Shown piece by piece: positions 10,872 through 17,107 of a stretch of 64,000 bases of DNA. The translations under genes and the position numbers were made by a program. The DNA comes from Escherichia phage EC.W2-6. The first letter of the stretch is position 1. The number at the start of each line of letters is the position of its first letter. The DNA lies in the sequence record PP445229.1, one strand, 5' to 3'. The notes beneath the pieces were generated by a model. That model had not been told where the DNA came from and did not search any database. It saw only the letters and a program-made list of their open reading frames with translations.

Positions 10872-11037
10872 CTTCTGTAATAAAGAGAAGACTGTCGCCA
10901 ACTTTAAACCTAATCCTGTAACTGGTCTGACCCATGTCATGTGCCACTCTTGCAGGATATATCTTGAAACAAAACACACTATCAATAGATTGCATTATTA
11001 TCACCCAACAACATTCAAATTTAAGGTTGTGAAATGA
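10852..11037 (+). CDS. small zinc-ribbon protein (61 aa)
   Basis: CSFC ... CHSC cysteine pairs; start taken at internal ATG with GGAGAA upstream. Confidence 0.4.
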   Translation: MEKKVCSFCNKEKTVANFKPNPVTGLTHVMCHSCRIYLETKHTINRLHYYHPTTFKFKVVK

Positions 11038-11363
11038 TTGACAGTAATACATTTAGGACTTCAAATGGAAGTGAAATAAGTCCCGCTGAAGTAATCAATC
11101 GGCATAGAAGGCAATTGATCATCCATTCCTATTTGTATTACTGGTTGGATGACCCTATCTGGTCTGATGATAAATGGCAACAAGTTGCTAATGATCTAGT
11201 GGAGCTGCAAGCTCTGTATCCAGAGCCTACCGGAGTCTTTGACAGTGAGTTCAAAGATTGGGATGGTTCTACAGGGATGCACCTCCCACACAATGAGACT
11301 GTTGCTTGTATGGCGACAGCTGTTTACAGGATTCATAAAGATATGAACCATGAAGTGCTCTAG
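11034..11363 (+). CDS. hypothetical protein (109 aa)
   Basis: ORF overlapping upstream stop. Confidence 0.45.
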   Translation: MIDSNTFRTSNGSEISPAEVINRHRRQLIIHSYLYYWLDDPIWSDDKWQQVANDLVELQALYPEPTGVFDSEFKDWDGSTGMHLPHNETVACMATAVYRIHKDMNHEVL

Positions 11364-11535
11364 ATGTGAAGGAACAAACCTTCATTTAAGTAACAAGGTT
11401 ATCAGAGAGCTTGCCAAAGGCTCTCCAACCAAAGGGAAGAACAAACGATTTACTAACGTCAGGGTTTATACAGCAATCTGCAAAGACTGCTTAACTACTG
11501 AGTGTCATTACGAAGAAATTGGAGAGCGTAAATGA
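11350..11535 (+). CDS. small zinc-ribbon protein (61 aa)
   Basis: CSRC ... CKDC pairs. Confidence 0.4.
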   Translation: MKCSRCEGTNLHLSNKVIRELAKGSPTKGKNKRFTNVRVYTAICKDCLTTECHYEEIGERK

Positions 11536-12269
11536 GTCGTCGTCAATCACGGAAAGAATCACGGAAAGACCTTCGTCGAGAAGCACTTGTTACTCGTAAG
11601 GGTAAGCGAGAGTATGAAGAGGTGGTTTTAGCAAAGCCTGTAGTCCCTCAGAACCAGTTTCAGTCTGAGCTACTCAATGCTATTAAGACTAAACAAGTTG
11701 TGTTCACAGACGCTCCTGCGGGCTGTGGTAAGACCTTTGTAATCACTTCCACGGTTATTGATGCACTGAAGAGTGGTAAGATTCAGAAGATCATCCTGAG
11801 TCGACCTTCAGTTGGCATGGGTAACTCTCTTGGGTTACTTCCGGGAGGAATGCGTGAGAAGTTTGAACCATACCTGATGCCTATCATTGATGTTATTACT
11901 CAGCGATACGGTAAGGGATTCTATGAATGCCAAATCGGAAATGGTAACATTGAATTTGTACCTCTGGAATATCTCCGTGGTCGCTCTTTCAACGATGCCA
12001 TTGTTATCGTAGATGAGTTCCAGAACACAACTAAGGATGAAGCCTTCTCCATCATGACTCGATTGGGAGAAACCTCTCAATTGTTCTGTATGGGTGATAC
12101 AAACCAGCATGATATGCGTGGTCGCGAGAGTGGTCTAACTTGGGCTACTAACTTTATTGATGAACACGATCTGTATGAGTTTGCTGAGATTGTAGATGGT
12201 GAATCAGATGATATTGTTCGTTCTGGTTTCTGTAAGGCGATTGTTAAAGCAATGGAAAAGAAAGCTTAA
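11532..12269 (+). CDS. phoH: PhoH-like ATPase
   Basis: Walker A DAPAGCGKTF, Walker B IVIVDEFQN and PhoH-type GDTNQHD motif. Confidence 0.8.
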   Translation: MSRRQSRKESRKDLRREALVTRKGKREYEEVVLAKPVVPQNQFQSELLNAIKTKQVVFTDAPAGCGKTFVITSTVIDALKSGKIQKIILSRPSVGMGNSLGLLPGGMREKFEPYLMPIIDVITQRYGKGFYECQIGNGNIEFVPLEYLRGRSFNDAIVIVDEFQNTTKDEAFSIMTRLGETSQLFCMGDTNQHDMRGRESGLTWATNFIDEHDLYEFAEIVDGESDDIVRSGFCKAIVKAMEKKA

Positions 12270-12280
12270 ACAGTAACTTA

Positions 12281-12289
12281 TAATGTATA
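12281..12289 (+). promoter_or_regulatory. TAATGTATA element (candidate phage-sigma-dependent promoter)
   Basis: Exact 9-mer about 37 nt upstream of the 12326 start codon. Confidence 0.45.
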
Positions 12290-12325
12290 CTCCTTAGTGT
12301 ACACTGATATATTAAGGAGTTTTAA

Positions 12326-12643
12326 ATGGCAGATCATGTAGGAAAGAGAGATTATGCACAAGAAAGACGTACCGCAATTGCCCGTGGTGAGACAGGCGTT
12401 GGGAGCAAGAGCGGAGATGCTCAGCGCCACCGTGCACGTCGCATCGTTGAAAAGCGCGATGGAAAAGCTGCTGTCAGAGGTAAAGACGTTGGACACAAAC
12501 GAGCTGTCAAGTCTGGAGGCTCTAATGCGTCAAGCAACTTACGTGTTGAATCAGTCAGCTCAAACCGTTCAAACGGCGGCAAAAGTGGTGATCGAGCTGG
12601 AAAAGCAAACGGAGCTAGGAAGGGGGCGTTGAGTGGTTCTTGA
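12326..12643 (+). CDS. basic Gly/Arg/Lys-rich low-complexity protein (KGG-repeat-like)
   Basis: AAGGAG Shine-Dalgarno 8 nt upstream; T/A-ending codon preference like the rest of the phage; TAATGTATA element about 37 nt upstream. Confidence 0.5.
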   Translation: MADHVGKRDYAQERRTAIARGETGVGSKSGDAQRHRARRIVEKRDGKAAVRGKDVGHKRAVKSGGSNASSNLRVESVSSNRSNGGKSGDRAGKANGARKGALSGS

Positions 12644-13124
12644 TGACACCTTATCTTACGATGCGGTCACAGGTAACCTATATTACACAAAATCTCCTAG
12701 CAAAGGAGTGATGTGGAACAAAAGCCACCCCGGAAAGATAGCTGGATGTATGATATCGAAAGGCTATATCGGTGTGTATTTCCAAGGAAGACGATGGAGA
12801 GCGCACCGACTTATAGCTACGCACTTTATACCAAACCCTAACAATTATCCAGAAGTCAACCACATCAATGGGATAAAAGACGATAATCGACTGGAGAATC
12901 TTGAATGGGTATCCGCTTCTGAAAACATACAACATTCCTTTGATACAGGGTTGAATAAAGGGCACACTCGTGACAATAACGGAATGACCAAATTATCCTC
13001 TGGAGATGTTGTAAAGATTAAACAGATGTATGTGAAGGGTTCTAGGGATTTTGGCTCTAGAGGTCTTGGTAAGTTGTTTGGCGTGAGCCATACAGCTATA
13101 CTCCATGCTTTAAAGGAGCTTTAA
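12633..13124 (+). CDS. HNH-family homing endonuclease
   Basis: HFIPNPNNYPEVNHINGIKDDNRLENLEWVS is the classic HNH (HNH_3) core; C-terminal helix-turn-helix-like tail; GTG start overlapping upstream stop. Confidence 0.75.
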   Translation: MVLDDTLSYDAVTGNLYYTKSPSKGVMWNKSHPGKIAGCMISKGYIGVYFQGRRWRAHRLIATHFIPNPNNYPEVNHINGIKDDNRLENLEWVSASENIQHSFDTGLNKGHTRDNNGMTKLSSGDVVKIKQMYVKGSRDFGSRGLGKLFGVSHTAILHALKEL

Positions 13125-13140
13125 GCTCATCGTAATATGA

Positions 13141-13169
13141 GGCTACCCAAATGGGTGGCCTTTTCTTTC
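13141..13169 (+). terminator. rho-independent terminator
   Basis: GGCTACCC-AAAT-GGGTGGCC hairpin followed by TTTTCTTTC. Confidence 0.6.
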
Positions 13170-13203
13170 ATATAAACCAAAATAAACTTCTTAGGTAATA
13201 AAT

Positions 13204-13458
13204 ATGTCTATTGTAAAAATCGTAAATATTTTTGATGTAACCAGAGATGGCAAGATTGTTAAGTGGACTTTCACTAACCACCACAACAAATCAAACAAGA
13301 TCATCGAACGGATGATTGAGATTAACCCAAAAACAGCTCGCACTAACGTACTCCTTCGAGGAGCTGATGGAAAATTTATCTCTTATAAGAATAAGAACGT
13401 AGAAAAATCTTTCCGTGTTGCAGTAGAAAATCTCATCCCATTCCCTAAAGGAGTTTAA
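13204..13458 (+). CDS. small protein, paralog 1 of a tandem pair
   Basis: Shares KTARTNVLLRGADGKFISY ... AVENLIPFPKG with the next ORF. Confidence 0.55.
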   Translation: MSIVKIVNIFDVTRDGKIVKWTFTNHHNKSNKIIERMIEINPKTARTNVLLRGADGKFISYKNKNVEKSFRVAVENLIPFPKGV

Positions 13459-13459
13459 T

Positions 13460-13744
13460 ATGAATAAGTTAGCTATGGTTCAGATTCGAGACACATACCC
13501 TAACCGCCCGGAGCAGAAACCGCGTACTTGGTCTTATCTGTTGGCTGAAAGTAAGACTATTGACAAATACGCTGTAGGGATTGATGCTATTCCAAATAGT
13601 GTCACATTACTCCCTCACAAAACAGCCAGAACTAATGTAATGTTACGTGATAGCAAAGGTAAGTTTATCTCTTATCGTGATTCAAGAATCAATAATGAAA
13701 TTAAATCTGCTGTGGAATTTTTGATGCCATTCCCAAGAGGTTGA
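13460..13744 (+). CDS. small protein, paralog 2 of a tandem pair
   Basis: KTARTNVMLRDSKGKFISY ... AVEFLMPFPRG. Confidence 0.55.
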   Translation: MNKLAMVQIRDTYPNRPEQKPRTWSYLLAESKTIDKYAVGIDAIPNSVTLLPHKTARTNVMLRDSKGKFISYRDSRINNEIKSAVEFLMPFPRG

Positions 13745-13747
13745 GTT

Positions 13748-13906
13748 ATGAAAGAGTATATTTACGTTGGTCAGCGGTGGTTCGGTGATGAATGGGAAGG
13801 TGGATACAGCGTTGTGAAAGCTTTTAAGTCTGAAGAAGATGCCAAGGCATGGGTCTTAAAAGATGACGTTGGCGAGAGAACTTACATTGAAGTAGAGGTG
13901 GAGTAG
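13748..13906 (+). CDS. small hypothetical protein (52 aa)
   Basis: Not in track; tightly packed between flanking genes. Confidence 0.3.
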   Translation: MKEYIYVGQRWFGDEWEGGYSVVKAFKSEEDAKAWVLKDDVGERTYIEVEVE

Positions 13907-13907
13907 A

Positions 13908-14330
13908 ATGCCATTACCAGCTAGACACCAAAACCGTTTCTTAGTTCTTAAGTGGGATGATATCGAAATGAATCTCACTGAACATGAACTTGATTTGTTC
14001 CATGAACTACTGTCAGAGATTCGCTCTGGTATCCCTGAACGTCAGTATGTGGTTATCAGTGATAAGCACCCTCAAGAGTTTGAAGAAGCTTGGGGTATGA
14101 AGTTGGCTTACATTCAGAGAGCTATCCGAGAAAGAGAAGAAGTCGCTAACCAAAGGGTTGTGGCTCATTTAGTACGAGAGCAACCTCGTGAAGCTAGGGC
14201 TAACCATGCACCACCTCCACCTACTCCTCGGATAGTTGTTAACGGGGCGGTTAGGGCTTACAGTTATGAAGCTACCGCGTTAGATGTGATAGAAGATAAC
14301 CAAGCATTTACAGATTTACTTTACCAATAA
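13908..14330 (+). CDS. hypothetical protein (140 aa)
   Basis: ORF immediately upstream of DNA polymerase catalytic gene. Confidence 0.5.
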   Translation: MPLPARHQNRFLVLKWDDIEMNLTEHELDLFHELLSEIRSGIPERQYVVISDKHPQEFEEAWGMKLAYIQRAIREREEVANQRVVAHLVREQPREARANHAPPPPTPRIVVNGAVRAYSYEATALDVIEDNQAFTDLLYQ

Positions 14331-14346
14331 TTTAAAGGAGTATAAA

Positions 14347-16191
14347 GTGAGCAACCCGGACGCTCTTCCATTTTTGACAGAGATGACTGTCGCTGATATA
14401 ATCTCTAAGCAAGCAAAGCACGGAGTTAGTTTCAACCGAAGAAATGCTCGGTGGTATGTTCACCTCCTTAAAGAGATTATTGTTAATATTGACAGAGAGT
14501 TGATTCCTCTCTTACCTAAGATGAGATTAGATGGCTCTACTTATATGAAGCCGTTTAAGAAGTCTGGAGCTTTACAGAAGTGGCCTCAAGCTTATTGTGA
14601 TAGGGTTGGGCTGAAAAGAGAAGACATTGGTGGAGCATTCACCTGTGTCGAATATGTAGACTTTGATCCATCGAAAGATGCACGAGTTAAAGAAGCTCTT
14701 ATGGATGAGGGCTTTCTTCCTCCAGAGTTTAACGTATCTAAGAAGCCTTGGAATACTTTCGAAATTAAGAAAGATATGAGAAAGTATGGAACATACCAAG
14801 CATGGTATACTGCTTGGATGCGAGGTAATGCTAAACAGAAGCAGACAGCCGAGATGGTTGACGCTGATATTAGAAAGTTCTTAGAGAAGCATTTTCGGTT
14901 TAAAACTAAGAACTACATGAAGGCTTACGTATTTGGTTTGGGATTAAACCCTAATCGCCGTAATCCTGTAACGTTTGATGAGATTAAGAAAGCACTAGCC
15001 ACATCAAACAAGTGGCCTACAGCTCCTACAAACCTCGAGGAGACTCTTGAAGAAGGGTTAGGGGGTGAGCTAGGGAGTGTCGGAAGTTTGCTTAAGAGAC
15101 GCGTTGTGGCGGCTCACAGGCTAGGTCTTATCAGTGGACTCATAGCAAAGGAACGCGAAGATGGTAAACTTTCGGCAGAAGCTAACAGCTGCGCTACGCC
15201 GACTTTTCGATTCAAACATCGTATCGTGGTTAATATTCCCTCCCGTGGTCTGTTTGGTCACGAGTGTCGCAGTTTGTTTGAGTCTGACTATAACTCAGAC
15301 AGTGATCACTCTCGTCCTTTCGTTATTACTAACGTTGTTCCTGATGGTTGTTATATACGAAAAGGTACTAACGTAATTTACGAGAAAGGTAAGCCGGGGA
15401 AGAAAGACAAACCTGTAGGCGCTTACAAATATTACATACCCACTGGTAAAGAAGTATTCTTAGGGTATGATGGTTCTGGACTGGAACTTCGTATGCTCGC
15501 TCACTACCTCATTAAAGAGTGTAGGGATATGCTTGCTGAGGCAATTGAAGAGAACAACCCAGCTAAGAAAGCTCTGGCAGAACGTGGTTTAGCTTCTGCT
15601 ATTATGTATCGTGATATTCTCCTTGAAGGTGATATCCACTCCCACAACCAGAAACTTGCTGGTCTTCCTACTCGTGACAACGCTAAGACATTTATCTATG
15701 CATTCAACTACGGTGCTGGCGATGCTAAGCTTGGTTCAATTGTAGGTGGTGGGGCTGACGAAGGTTCAGTGATGCGAGCACGTTTCTTAGCAGAGAACCC
15801 ATGTATTGCAATCCTCATTGATCGTATGACAGAGAAAGCTGCTCAAGGATACTTGATTGGAGTTGATGGTCGTAAGATTACAATGAGACGGGATGCCACT
15901 GGTAAGGTTATGGTTCATAAAGCCCTTAACACACTCCTGCAATGTGCTGGTGCTGTTGTTATGAAATATGCTATGATGTTCCTTAACAAGTGGATTGAGA
16001 AAGATAAGGTTCGTTGTGCTAAGGTAATTGATATGCACGATGAAGGTCAATTCTCAGTAAACCGTAATGATGTACAGAAACTCAAAGAGCACACTGAGCT
16101 TTGTGTTAAGAAAGCTGGCGAGTATCTGAACATGGAATGTCCTCTGGCATCTGATTGTCAGATTGGACTTAACTGGATGCATACACACTAA
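14347..16191 (+). CDS. DNA polymerase I family (T7 gp5-like), polymerase domain; C-terminal part of split polymerase
   Basis: GYDGSGLELRMLAHY (motif A), LPTRDNAKTFIYAFNYGAGDAKLG (motif B), VIDMHDEGQF (motif C); AAAGGAG Shine-Dalgarno before GTG start. Confidence 0.85.
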   Translation: MSNPDALPFLTEMTVADIISKQAKHGVSFNRRNARWYVHLLKEIIVNIDRELIPLLPKMRLDGSTYMKPFKKSGALQKWPQAYCDRVGLKREDIGGAFTCVEYVDFDPSKDARVKEALMDEGFLPPEFNVSKKPWNTFEIKKDMRKYGTYQAWYTAWMRGNAKQKQTAEMVDADIRKFLEKHFRFKTKNYMKAYVFGLGLNPNRRNPVTFDEIKKALATSNKWPTAPTNLEETLEEGLGGELGSVGSLLKRRVVAAHRLGLISGLIAKEREDGKLSAEANSCATPTFRFKHRIVVNIPSRGLFGHECRSLFESDYNSDSDHSRPFVITNVVPDGCYIRKGTNVIYEKGKPGKKDKPVGAYKYYIPTGKEVFLGYDGSGLELRMLAHYLIKECRDMLAEAIEENNPAKKALAERGLASAIMYRDILLEGDIHSHNQKLAGLPTRDNAKTFIYAFNYGAGDAKLGSIVGGGADEGSVMRARFLAENPCIAILIDRMTEKAAQGYLIGVDGRKITMRRDATGKVMVHKALNTLLQCAGAVVMKYAMMFLNKWIEKDKVRCAKVIDMHDEGQFSVNRNDVQKLKEHTELCVKKAGEYLNMECPLASDCQIGLNWMHTH

Positions 16192-16196
16192 GGTGA

Positions 16197-16565
16197 GTGA
16201 TGAAAGAAACCAATATCATCTACAGAACATTGAGATGTTTAGCTAAAGAGAGGGGGATGGAGGATTTCCTCCTCCAATATTATGAAATAACTAAGACTGG
16301 AATTTATCCAAAATGGTTTAGTGAAGATCACGGATTATGCTTCAACTTTCGCTGTTATAAGAGGTATTACTATTTCACAAAGCATTTAGATATTGACGAC
16401 ATGAAGAATATGTTTAATCAAGAAAAGTTTTTGGACCCAACATACCCATTCGGATGTTATCAATATTTTAGAGATAGGGAAAACGGGGCACATCATAAGA
16501 ATCCAAAACGACGGGCTTGGATTAAAGATACACTGAAAACTCTGTACAGTATTGAGGTTGAGTGA
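16197..16565 (+). CDS. hypothetical protein (122 aa)
   Basis: ORF in operon context. Confidence 0.45.
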   Translation: MMKETNIIYRTLRCLAKERGMEDFLLQYYEITKTGIYPKWFSEDHGLCFNFRCYKRYYYFTKHLDIDDMKNMFNQEKFLDPTYPFGCYQYFRDRENGAHHKNPKRRAWIKDTLKTLYSIEVE

Positions 16566-16756
16566 TGAGTGTTCGTGGTTATTATGAATCTTGGGCCGTC
16601 TTCAGCGGTGGCTCCACTCTCGTAGCATTAAATGGTCAACTGTGTATCTTTGAGACAGAGAACTTAGCAATAACCAAAGCAGCAGAGCTAGTTCGAAAGT
16701 TTCCAAACAAGACATTCACAGTTAAAAGGATAGAAGTACCTGCATTGGTAGAGTGA
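16562..16756 (+). CDS. hypothetical protein (64 aa)
   Basis: ATGA start/stop overlap. Confidence 0.4.
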   Translation: MMSVRGYYESWAVFSGGSTLVALNGQLCIFETENLAITKAAELVRKFPNKTFTVKRIEVPALVE

Positions 16757-16912
16757 ATAAATAAGACGAATGAACTATTCTTATTGATTGGTTCGTAACA
16801 AGGAGATTGAAGTGGAAGAGATGCCATCGGATTGGTGTTATCGTCAGAGCGCCATCTGTAATGAACAAGGTCGTCCTGATGAGGCTGAGTTCTATCTAGA
16901 GCTAGCCGAACT

Positions 16913-17107
16913 GTGGAAAGAACGAGAGGAGAAAGAGTGATGGAAGGTATTTACCGTAAACCGCCTCCAAAATATAACATCCTTTATACTGATGCAACAG
17001 GTGAGTTTAGAAGTGTGTTAGTTTACACGGATGAAGAACGAAACCAAATGGTTGCTGCTATTGAAGCCAATGGTGGTACAATCATGCGAATTTATAACAT
17101 AACATAA
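16913..17107 (+). CDS. hypothetical protein (64 aa)
   Basis: ORF with GGAG upstream. Confidence 0.4.
   Translation: MERTRGERVMEGIYRKPPPKYNILYTDATGEFRSVLVYTDEERNQMVAAIEANGGTIMRIYNIT

Follow-up and report, generated by a model that had tools for sequence, protein, structure and literature searches.

A tandem pair of small paralogues in the DNA polymerase operon of phiEco32-like phages combines a conserved half with hypervariable cassettes

Introduction

In phage T7, small anti-host genes are also found among the class II replication genes, and in phage T4 the regA gene is encoded next to gene 43. Both arrangements place small genes close to the replication functions of a virulent phage. For phiEco32, the promoter consensus of the phage sigma factor gp36 is tAATGTAtA, gp36-dependent promoters have been mapped experimentally for six genes, gene 58 among them, and the polymerase cluster is assigned to the middle expression class (PMC8948821). 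Phages of the subfamily Gordonclarkvirinae are reported to be unusually resistant to restriction-modification and other defences, with no known inhibitor (PMC11990801). Two phiEco32 proteins of the polymerase region, gp57 and gp56 (phi32_57 and phi32_56), are annotated as hypothetical in GenBank; the genes and their family (phrog_6814) are already catalogued and uncharacterised, and no paper on the family was found by gene names, accessions, motif or PHROG id in the literature other than the primary phiEco32 papers.

Here we describe the corresponding gene pair in Escherichia phage EC.W2-6 (PP445229.1), a phiEco32-like phage of the Kuravirus group of Gordonclarkvirinae, from which a stretch of 64,000 nucleotides (the window) was analysed. 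Between positions 12600 and 14400 the window is a 100% megablast match, at equal coordinates, to Escherichia phage EC.W8-1 (PQ030848; ECW8-1). The two genes, ORF A and ORF B, are direct orthologues of phiEco32 gp57 and gp56, to which they are 65% and 89% identical, respectively, and occupy the same operon position. We refer to the paralogue family to which they belong as X, and to the two copies as X_A and X_B.

Results

Paralogy and selection

A first-pass annotation had singled out positions 13204-13744 as two tandem paralogs that share a KTARTNV ... GKFISY ... PFP motif downstream of a homing endonuclease gene. The interval coincides exactly with two annotated genes, both on the + strand; all three motifs are present in each of them, and an HNH gene lies directly 5' of the pair. 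The features are as follows:

12633-13124: HNH homing endonuclease gene (Pfam HNH_3, E=3e-10), between g58 and a conserved hairpin
13204-13458, + strand: ORF A, 84 aa, orthologue of phiEco32 gp57, with an AGGT Shine-Dalgarno sequence at 13193-13196
13460-13744, + strand: ORF B, 94 aa, orthologue of phiEco32 gp56, with an AAAGGAG Shine-Dalgarno sequence at 13447-13453
13330-13455, + strand: conserved half of ORF A, comprising the KTARTNV loop, a predicted β-hairpin with GKFISY, the C-terminal helix and the PFP tail
13619-13741, + strand: conserved half of ORF B, KTARTNV ... GKFISY ... PFP
13330-13350 and 13619-13639, + strand: KTARTNV of ORF A (residues 43-49) and ORF B (residues 54-60)
13369-13386 and 13658-13675, + strand: GKFISY of ORF A and ORF B
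13438-13446 and 13727-13735, + strand: PFP of ORF A and ORF B

The two genes are separated by one base, and the last codons of ORF A contain the Shine-Dalgarno sequence of ORF B, so that translation of ORF B is probably coupled to that of ORF A.

The two proteins are related over their full length (BLASTP E=4e-16, 32% identity), far above chance. The earlier description of the C-terminal segments as nearly identical in pattern was too strong in its wording; the shared pattern is present, but 23 of the 41 C-terminal residues (56%) are identical, and outside this segment the identity is ~15%. At the DNA level the C-terminal segments are only 58% identical, with pS=0.67 and synonymous sites near saturation, which argues for an old duplication and not for a DNA repeat. 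Judged from the sequences, the resemblance is one that has been kept at the protein level since that duplication, with no recent DNA repeat or gene conversion. The N-termini differ, as had been observed, yet they are homologous: M1, V7 and D11 are kept, the same β1-β2-α1 elements are predicted in both proteins, and the N-terminal pattern h-x-h-x-I-x-D is conserved throughout the X family. The proposal of a duplicated unit of unknown function was upheld as far as the duplication goes; the unit is the whole one-domain gene and not a C-terminal domain. ORF A and ORF B are real, co-transcribed genes from an old tandem duplication of one small (~85 aa) α/β protein, and their adjacent position suggests a single duplication event.

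Selection on the shared segment was measured by comparing orthologues, and the objection that the motif might be a repeat artefact not under purifying selection failed. Among ten kuraviruses, dN/dS of the C-terminal half was 0.10-0.12 (0.105 for ORF A and 0.116 for ORF B), and within allele classes the conserved half of ORF A gave a value of 0.03. That the ORFs are not genes at all, or that the motif is a DNA repeat devoid of meaning at the protein level, is practically inconceivable: ~98 phage genomes, as well as metagenomes, keep the frames open, the AlphaFold2 models are confident, dN/dS lies far below 1, and the shared DNA has diverged to the extent given above. Selection and conservation data together refute this reading.

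Predicted fold and comparison with known protein families

Both paralogues fall at full length into one PHROG, phrog_6814, a phage family of unknown function (ORF A, E=3.7e-36, residues 1-84 on profile positions 1-86 of 86; ORF B, E=2.4e-36, residues 1-94 on profile positions 1-85 of 86). Structure prediction, which had been proposed as a check, was conducted with AlphaFold2 on a 47-sequence alignment. The ORF A model (pLDDT 84.8, pTM 0.73) contains strands at residues 6-12, 18-24 and 48-52 and helices at 30-38 and 68-75; the ORF B model (pLDDT 83.8, pTM 0.76) contains strands at 6-11, 22-28 and 60-63 and helices at 41-48 and 79-87. The two share a β1-β2-α1-β3-β4-α2 topology, and in the models each protein is one compact β-β-α-β-β-α domain, in which the variable part is the predicted first hairpin plus first helix and forms no separate module. 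Model confidence is lower at the extreme C-terminus that bears the PFP motif (block means 61 and 75). The ORF B model superimposes on independent BFVD models of copy-2-type and 83-aa members of the X family with TM scores of 0.68-0.77.

The invariant half of the family consists of a T-A-R-T-N loop, a basic hairpin of the form V-x-L-R-x-x-x-G-K/R-F-I/V-S-Y/F and a C-terminal helix with an L-x-P-F-P tail. This half is net positive in most members, and the overall pI ranges over 4.6-10.8.

No relative of either protein was detected in scans of Pfam, NCBIfam and PADLOC (nothing at E<=0.1 in Pfam or NCBIfam); the PADLOC scan gave a stray match of ORF B to a Cas8 model (E=0.021), and neither protein belongs to the anti-phage defence components that PADLOC covers. 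A profile search against PDB sequences returned single-hairpin noise at E>=0.09 and no known relative, and fold searches of the PDB yielded no match to a replication factor, a nucleic-acid-binding fold or any solved relative. The single hairpins of fascin-like/β-trefoil and lamin-tail proteins (7zoi, 3jt0) show the same local tight-hairpin pattern, h-x-L-R-G-x-x-G-K-F-I-S; however, these hits (E 0.09-0.3) involve one hairpin only, with no match at the level of the fold, and the likeness is a chance or convergent resemblance.

Specific candidates were considered in the same way. The five-stranded OB β-barrel of SSB and T7 gp2.5-like proteins was not detected in either protein by profile or fold comparison, and neither matched the RegA fold or its sequence family. 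DNA-mimic anti-restriction proteins such as Ocr and ArdA, which are strongly acidic, were rejected, since ORF A and ORF B are basic (pI 10.3 and 10.0, respectively) and have no Pfam match. On inspection of the alignments, neither a β-clamp motif (QL[SD]LF-type) nor a mimic of the SSB tail (D-D-D-I-P-F) was present; the conserved tail of the family, E-x-L-x-P-F-P-x-G, has no Gln and no acidic run, and its Phe is not the last residue. Several GenBank records give ORF A, and some others ORF B, the product name 'autotransporter adhesin'. This name is unsupported: autotransporters are hundreds of residues long, with a β-barrel or YadA-type anchor, a passenger domain and a signal peptide, whereas ORF A has 84 aa, profile support is absent and the gene belongs to a middle replication operon; the name looks like a propagated annotation error.

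Distribution and copy number

Searched exhaustively with an HMM, 1.84 billion cluster representatives gave 32 matches, of which ~27 are real clusters of 79-103 aa; the five long matches (554-1465 aa), with their repetitive and nonsensical multi-family Pfam matches, were discarded as spurious. Among GenBank phages the family was found only in ~98 Escherichia/Shigella genomes of Gordonclarkvirinae, and a scan of 185,579 bacterial and archaeal species genomes detected no relative. Two tandem copies are present in most Kuravirus genomes, in Suseptimavirus (SU7, ECBP2) and in KBNP1711; EP335, Bas89 and Bas92/94 carry one copy, of the A type, and all metagenomic relatives carry one copy. In a neighbour-joining tree (86 columns), the A clade and the Kuravirus B clade each received 100% bootstrap support, and the deep branching of copy-1 versus copy-2 types was without support. 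Copy B, which is missing from some lineages, would be a diverged and dispensable specialisation.

Operon context

The genes around the pair were compared in phiEco32, SGF2, SR02, YW01, EcoN5, YF01, Paul, SU7, Bas92, Bas89, EP335, KBNP1711 and six metagenomic contigs. The block has the same layout in all of these genomes: g58, a GC-rich hairpin with a T run, one or two X genes, a gp54-like gene and PolA. This order is kept in the metagenomic relatives, with a gp54 homologue at the same position, even though their X proteins are only 38-47% identical and their polymerases ~80%. The elements of the window are:

12281-12289, + strand: TAATGTATA element in the gap between PhoH and g58, an exact match to the gp36 (phage sigma) middle/late promoter consensus
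12326-12643, + strand: g58 homologue, 105 aa, phrog_4590, first gene of the operon, very basic and of low complexity
13139-13170, + strand: GC-rich hairpin followed by a T run, intrinsic-terminator-like, found by a terminator scan directly 5' of ORF A
13748-13906, + strand: homologue of phiEco32 gp55, 52 aa, phrog_17007
13908-14330, + strand: gp54 homologue, 140 aa, phrog_11427, always between the X family and the polymerase
14347-16191, + strand: family A DNA polymerase, polymerase domain only (Pfam DNA_pol_A, E=2.5e-23), last large gene of the block

By its position and motif, TAATGTATA is likely to be the promoter of the operon that holds both paralogues. The intergenic gaps around the paralogues are 1-3 nt, and these short gaps, the upstream TAATGTATA element and the Shine-Dalgarno sequence of ORF B inside ORF A suggest that the paralogues are middle genes co-expressed with the polymerase.

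The g58 protein is 104-105 aa long, always precedes the X family and is 81-100% identical in all relatives. Its +1 frame (12354-12632) is open for ~92 codons in 9/9 relatives checked, and its synonymous divergence is below that of PhoH and Pol at equal distances; the two observations could reflect an overlapping gene or a constraint at the RNA level. The 52-aa gene is patchy, being missing in YF01, Bas92, SU7, KBNP1711, EP335 and the metagenomic relatives. Wherever the X family occurs, the polymerase shows 79-100% identity.

Several observations concern the polymerase and the DNA metabolism genes of the window. The family A polymerase is split, with a 185-aa 3'-5' exonuclease gene (5008-5565) located 9 kb from the gene for the polymerase domain, and in the metagenomic relatives it is broken further, into pieces of 449-457 aa and 95 aa that are separated by endonuclease genes. 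A perfect sigma-70 consensus promoter sequence at 14374-14402 (TTGACA, 17 nt, TATAAT, with an upstream TG; 12 of 12) sits within the first ~20 codons of the DNA polymerase ORF. Elsewhere, in the interval 5567-7471, a 453-aa protein with a weak match to the poly(A)-polymerase head (nucleotidyltransferase) adjoins a dCTP deaminase; it has been suggested in the BASEL paper that the nucleotidyltransferase/dCTP deaminase pair may underlie a DNA modification that explains restriction resistance.

The hairpin at 13139-13170 is present in 13/13 relatives examined, with other stem sequences in the metagenomic ones; possible roles are attenuation of transcription downstream of g58 and stabilisation of the mRNA. 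Its location directly upstream of the paralogues, together with that of the polymerase gene downstream, raises the idea that X regulates the polymerase operon by binding RNA, as a translational repressor or an RNA chaperone similar to T4 RegA. In that case the basic β-hairpin of X would bind the conserved RNA hairpin or the ribosome-binding sites of the operon. The invariant R, T, N, K/R and aromatic residues of the β-hairpin would suit such a role; however, the PDB searches gave no fold similarity to RegA or another RNA-binding domain, a hypervariable half is unexpected in a reader of a conserved RNA, and an Rfam scan of 11000-17000 found nothing meaningful and no RNA family in the region. 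We consider RNA-based regulation of this kind highly unlikely.

Hypervariable cassettes

In a sliding comparison, nucleotide identities of 90-100% were interrupted by three hypervariable cassettes with sharp boundaries:

13199-13320, + strand: HV1, residues 1-39 of ORF A (β1-β2-α1), 55-60% nucleotide identity (against other kuraviruses) with flanks of at least 90%
13469-13620, + strand: HV2, residues ~4-54 of ORF B, peak at 13529-13590, 70-78% nucleotide identity with flanks of at least 92%
~14159-14270, + strand: HV3, C-terminal part of gp54, 42-48% nucleotide identity (against phiEco32, EcoN5, SR02 and YW01) with flanks of at least 90%

The cassettes assort independently. ECW8-1 resembles Paul and not YF01 in HV1, YF01 and not Paul in HV2, and NJ01 in HV3; all allele combinations are seen among ECW8-1, YF01, Paul and phiEco32. 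In the middle of ORF A, dN/dS between alleles is 0.44, and dS reaches 1.06 compared with 0.2-0.3 in the flanks. Within an allele class, dN/dS of the variable half of ORF A is 0.20, which argues that this half is functional and not decaying; positive selection (dN/dS>1) was sought in the variable half and none was found, either between or within alleles. The picture that these comparisons suggest is one of old, discrete alleles that are kept and exchanged by recombination. The 'diversified N-terminal specificity' put forward in the first-pass annotation is a reasonable reading in this respect, once the variable halves are taken as discrete, reassorting cassettes that are constrained within each class.

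The HNH gene is an insertion polymorphism that lies outside the conserved block, and its first 11 nt are shared with the end of g58. ECW8-1, SGF2, YF01, YW01, EcoN5, NJ01 and Bas89 carry it, and phiEco32, Paul, Bas92, EP335, KBNP1711 and SU7 lack it; SR02 carries other inserted genes at the same site. Its insertion at exactly this junction favours the view that the variability is a by-product of homing traffic and does not stem from selection on protein specificity. The enzyme would cut genomes without its gene, the flanks would be co-converted during repair, and immune genomes would have diverged targets, leaving ORF A with patches of deeply diverged DNA; the raised dS of HV1 is consistent with foreign DNA having been imported or with nucleotide-level selection. 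Both HNH-bearing and HNH-free genomes are found in every allele class. This explanation concerns the cause of the variability only and is compatible with either of the functional readings discussed below. As a general account it appears distinctly unlikely: the insertion is 350-1100 bp distant from HV2 and HV3, whose assortment is independent of HV1, similar variation occurs in lineages without an HNH gene at the site (SU7 and the metagenomic contigs), and the variable half is under purifying selection within allele classes. Homing traffic may contribute to the mosaic of HV1; it offers no explanation for HV2 and HV3.

At the protein level, PhoH, g58 and Pol are 92-100% identical within Kuravirus (97-100% for PhoH and Pol), and X_A, X_B and gp54 are 65-98%, 77-99% and 80-99% identical, respectively. 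That X evolves far faster than its neighbours PhoH and Pol is one of the points in favour of a role as a host-takeover or anti-defence protein, that is, a small inhibitor or decoy for a host factor. In such a protein, the conserved face would either maintain the fold or recognise a conserved region of the target, and the hypervariable face would keep pace with host proteins that are polymorphic, for example sensors or effectors of defence; duplication would broaden the set of targets. The family is small and phage-only, its fold is an orphan, its alleles are discrete, old and freely reassorting, and its copy number varies, all of which suits a protein of this type; so does the general precedent of T7, in which anti-host genes occur amid the class II replication genes. 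The reported defence resistance of Gordonclarkvirinae (PMC11990801) points in the same direction. On the other hand, X is never missing and never moved in any genome of the clade, and probably not in Grimontviridae either, and anti-defence genes seldom behave in this way; its promoter motif places it in the middle rather than the early expression class; it has no PADLOC match and no likeness to DNA-mimic inhibitors, the Kuravirus copies having a pI of ~10; and there is no non-synonymous excess within allele classes. We regard an anti-host role as possible, if on the doubtful side.

Discussion

The reading that we favour, tentatively and at somewhat less than an even chance, is that X, as a component of the polymerase operon, acts by binding and not by catalysis and presents two faces, an invariant one formed by the basic β-hairpin and an exchangeable one for specificity. 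X would be a fixed part of a middle DNA polymerase operon that runs from the phage-sigma promoter through g58, the hairpin, X and gp54 to PolA. Through its invariant half X would contact a conserved ligand, which could be nucleic acid or a replication protein that is itself conserved, for instance the split PolA; its β1-β2-α1 half would serve as an exchangeable specificity face, or as a face that evades recognition, represented by discrete old alleles shuffled by recombination. Three observations lead to this reading: X is fixed beside PolA across deep divergence and never absent in the genomes examined; its predicted expression is that of the middle class; and one face is constrained (invariant R, T, N, R/K, K/R, F, S and Y/F), the other being exchangeable. 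From these we infer binding rather than catalysis, the link to replication and the likely nature of the ligand. Against a replication-linked function stand the lack of any homology or fold match to a replication factor or nucleic-acid-binding fold, the fact that the overall charge of the family is not conserved, and the rarity of cassette hypervariability, copy-number change and copy loss among core parts of the replisome; moreover, synteny with the polymerase is an association and not a proof.

An anti-host function accounts almost as well for the cassette diversity, the duplication and loss of copies, the orphan fold and the defence resistance, and it would merge with the replication-linked binding protein if the variable face served to escape host sensors of replication proteins. 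In a broader form, which we regard as unlikely, the operon would hold a modular system, not described before, in which the X_A, X_B and gp54 cassettes are independently shuffled old alleles; X would have a new fold, its hairpin would dock on the replisome or on replicating DNA, and the other face would blind immune sensors or inhibit polymorphic host factors. If true, such a system could help to explain the defence resistance of Gordonclarkvirinae. If X is a replisome factor with an exchangeable face, it would represent a compact case of an essential phage module that stays functional under a changing surface, and X itself would then also be a candidate for the unexplained defence resistance of these phages, which are used in phage therapy.

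What this analysis adds to the catalogued genes is a predicted one-domain fold without a solved relative, an invariant hairpin core that probably extends to Grimontviridae, a strict linkage to the polymerase operon and three independently assorting cassettes. The finding is modest and unsurprising; X is nonetheless a useful experimental target: its invariant motif invites mutagenesis, and the BASEL collection offers phages that naturally carry one copy or two.

Among known systems, the T7 genes 4.3, 4.5, 5.5, 5.7 and 5.9 and T4 regA are, like X, small genes that lie within the DNA replication cluster of virulent phages and are expressed with it; they resemble X in neither sequence nor fold, and the analogy is one of position only. 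LUZ24-like phages, whose polymerase is 39% identical to that of the window, have no X-like gene upstream of the polymerase. The nearest comparison outside Gordonclarkvirinae is with Grimontviridae (7-11, SeKF_80, GAP52, A24 and ECO319P1), whose Pol is 46% identical to that of the window. These phages encode a protein of similar size, 88-91 aa, two genes upstream of the homologous PolA (CDS0075 of 7-11/SeKF_80; GAP52 gp062, K4F6W0), and its end, R-T-N-[VI]-x-[VI]-R-D-x-K-(T)-G-R-F, has the hairpin in common with the X family. An hhalign comparison gave a probability of 86% (E=5e-6) over 23 columns only, and in a Foldseek search of BFVD, GAP52 K4F6W0 was a weak third match (probability 0.66). 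The Grimontviridae proteins differ from X in that they stop right after the hairpin, without the C-terminal helix and the PFP tail, and they are separated from the polymerase by a MazG-like and not by a gp54-like gene; a direct comparison showed gp54 and the MazG-like gene to be unrelated. On sequence grounds, the 88-91 aa protein is a probable truncated, deeper relative of the X family. If this homology is true, the basic β-hairpin would be the ancient core of the family, and its association with PolA would span two phage families.
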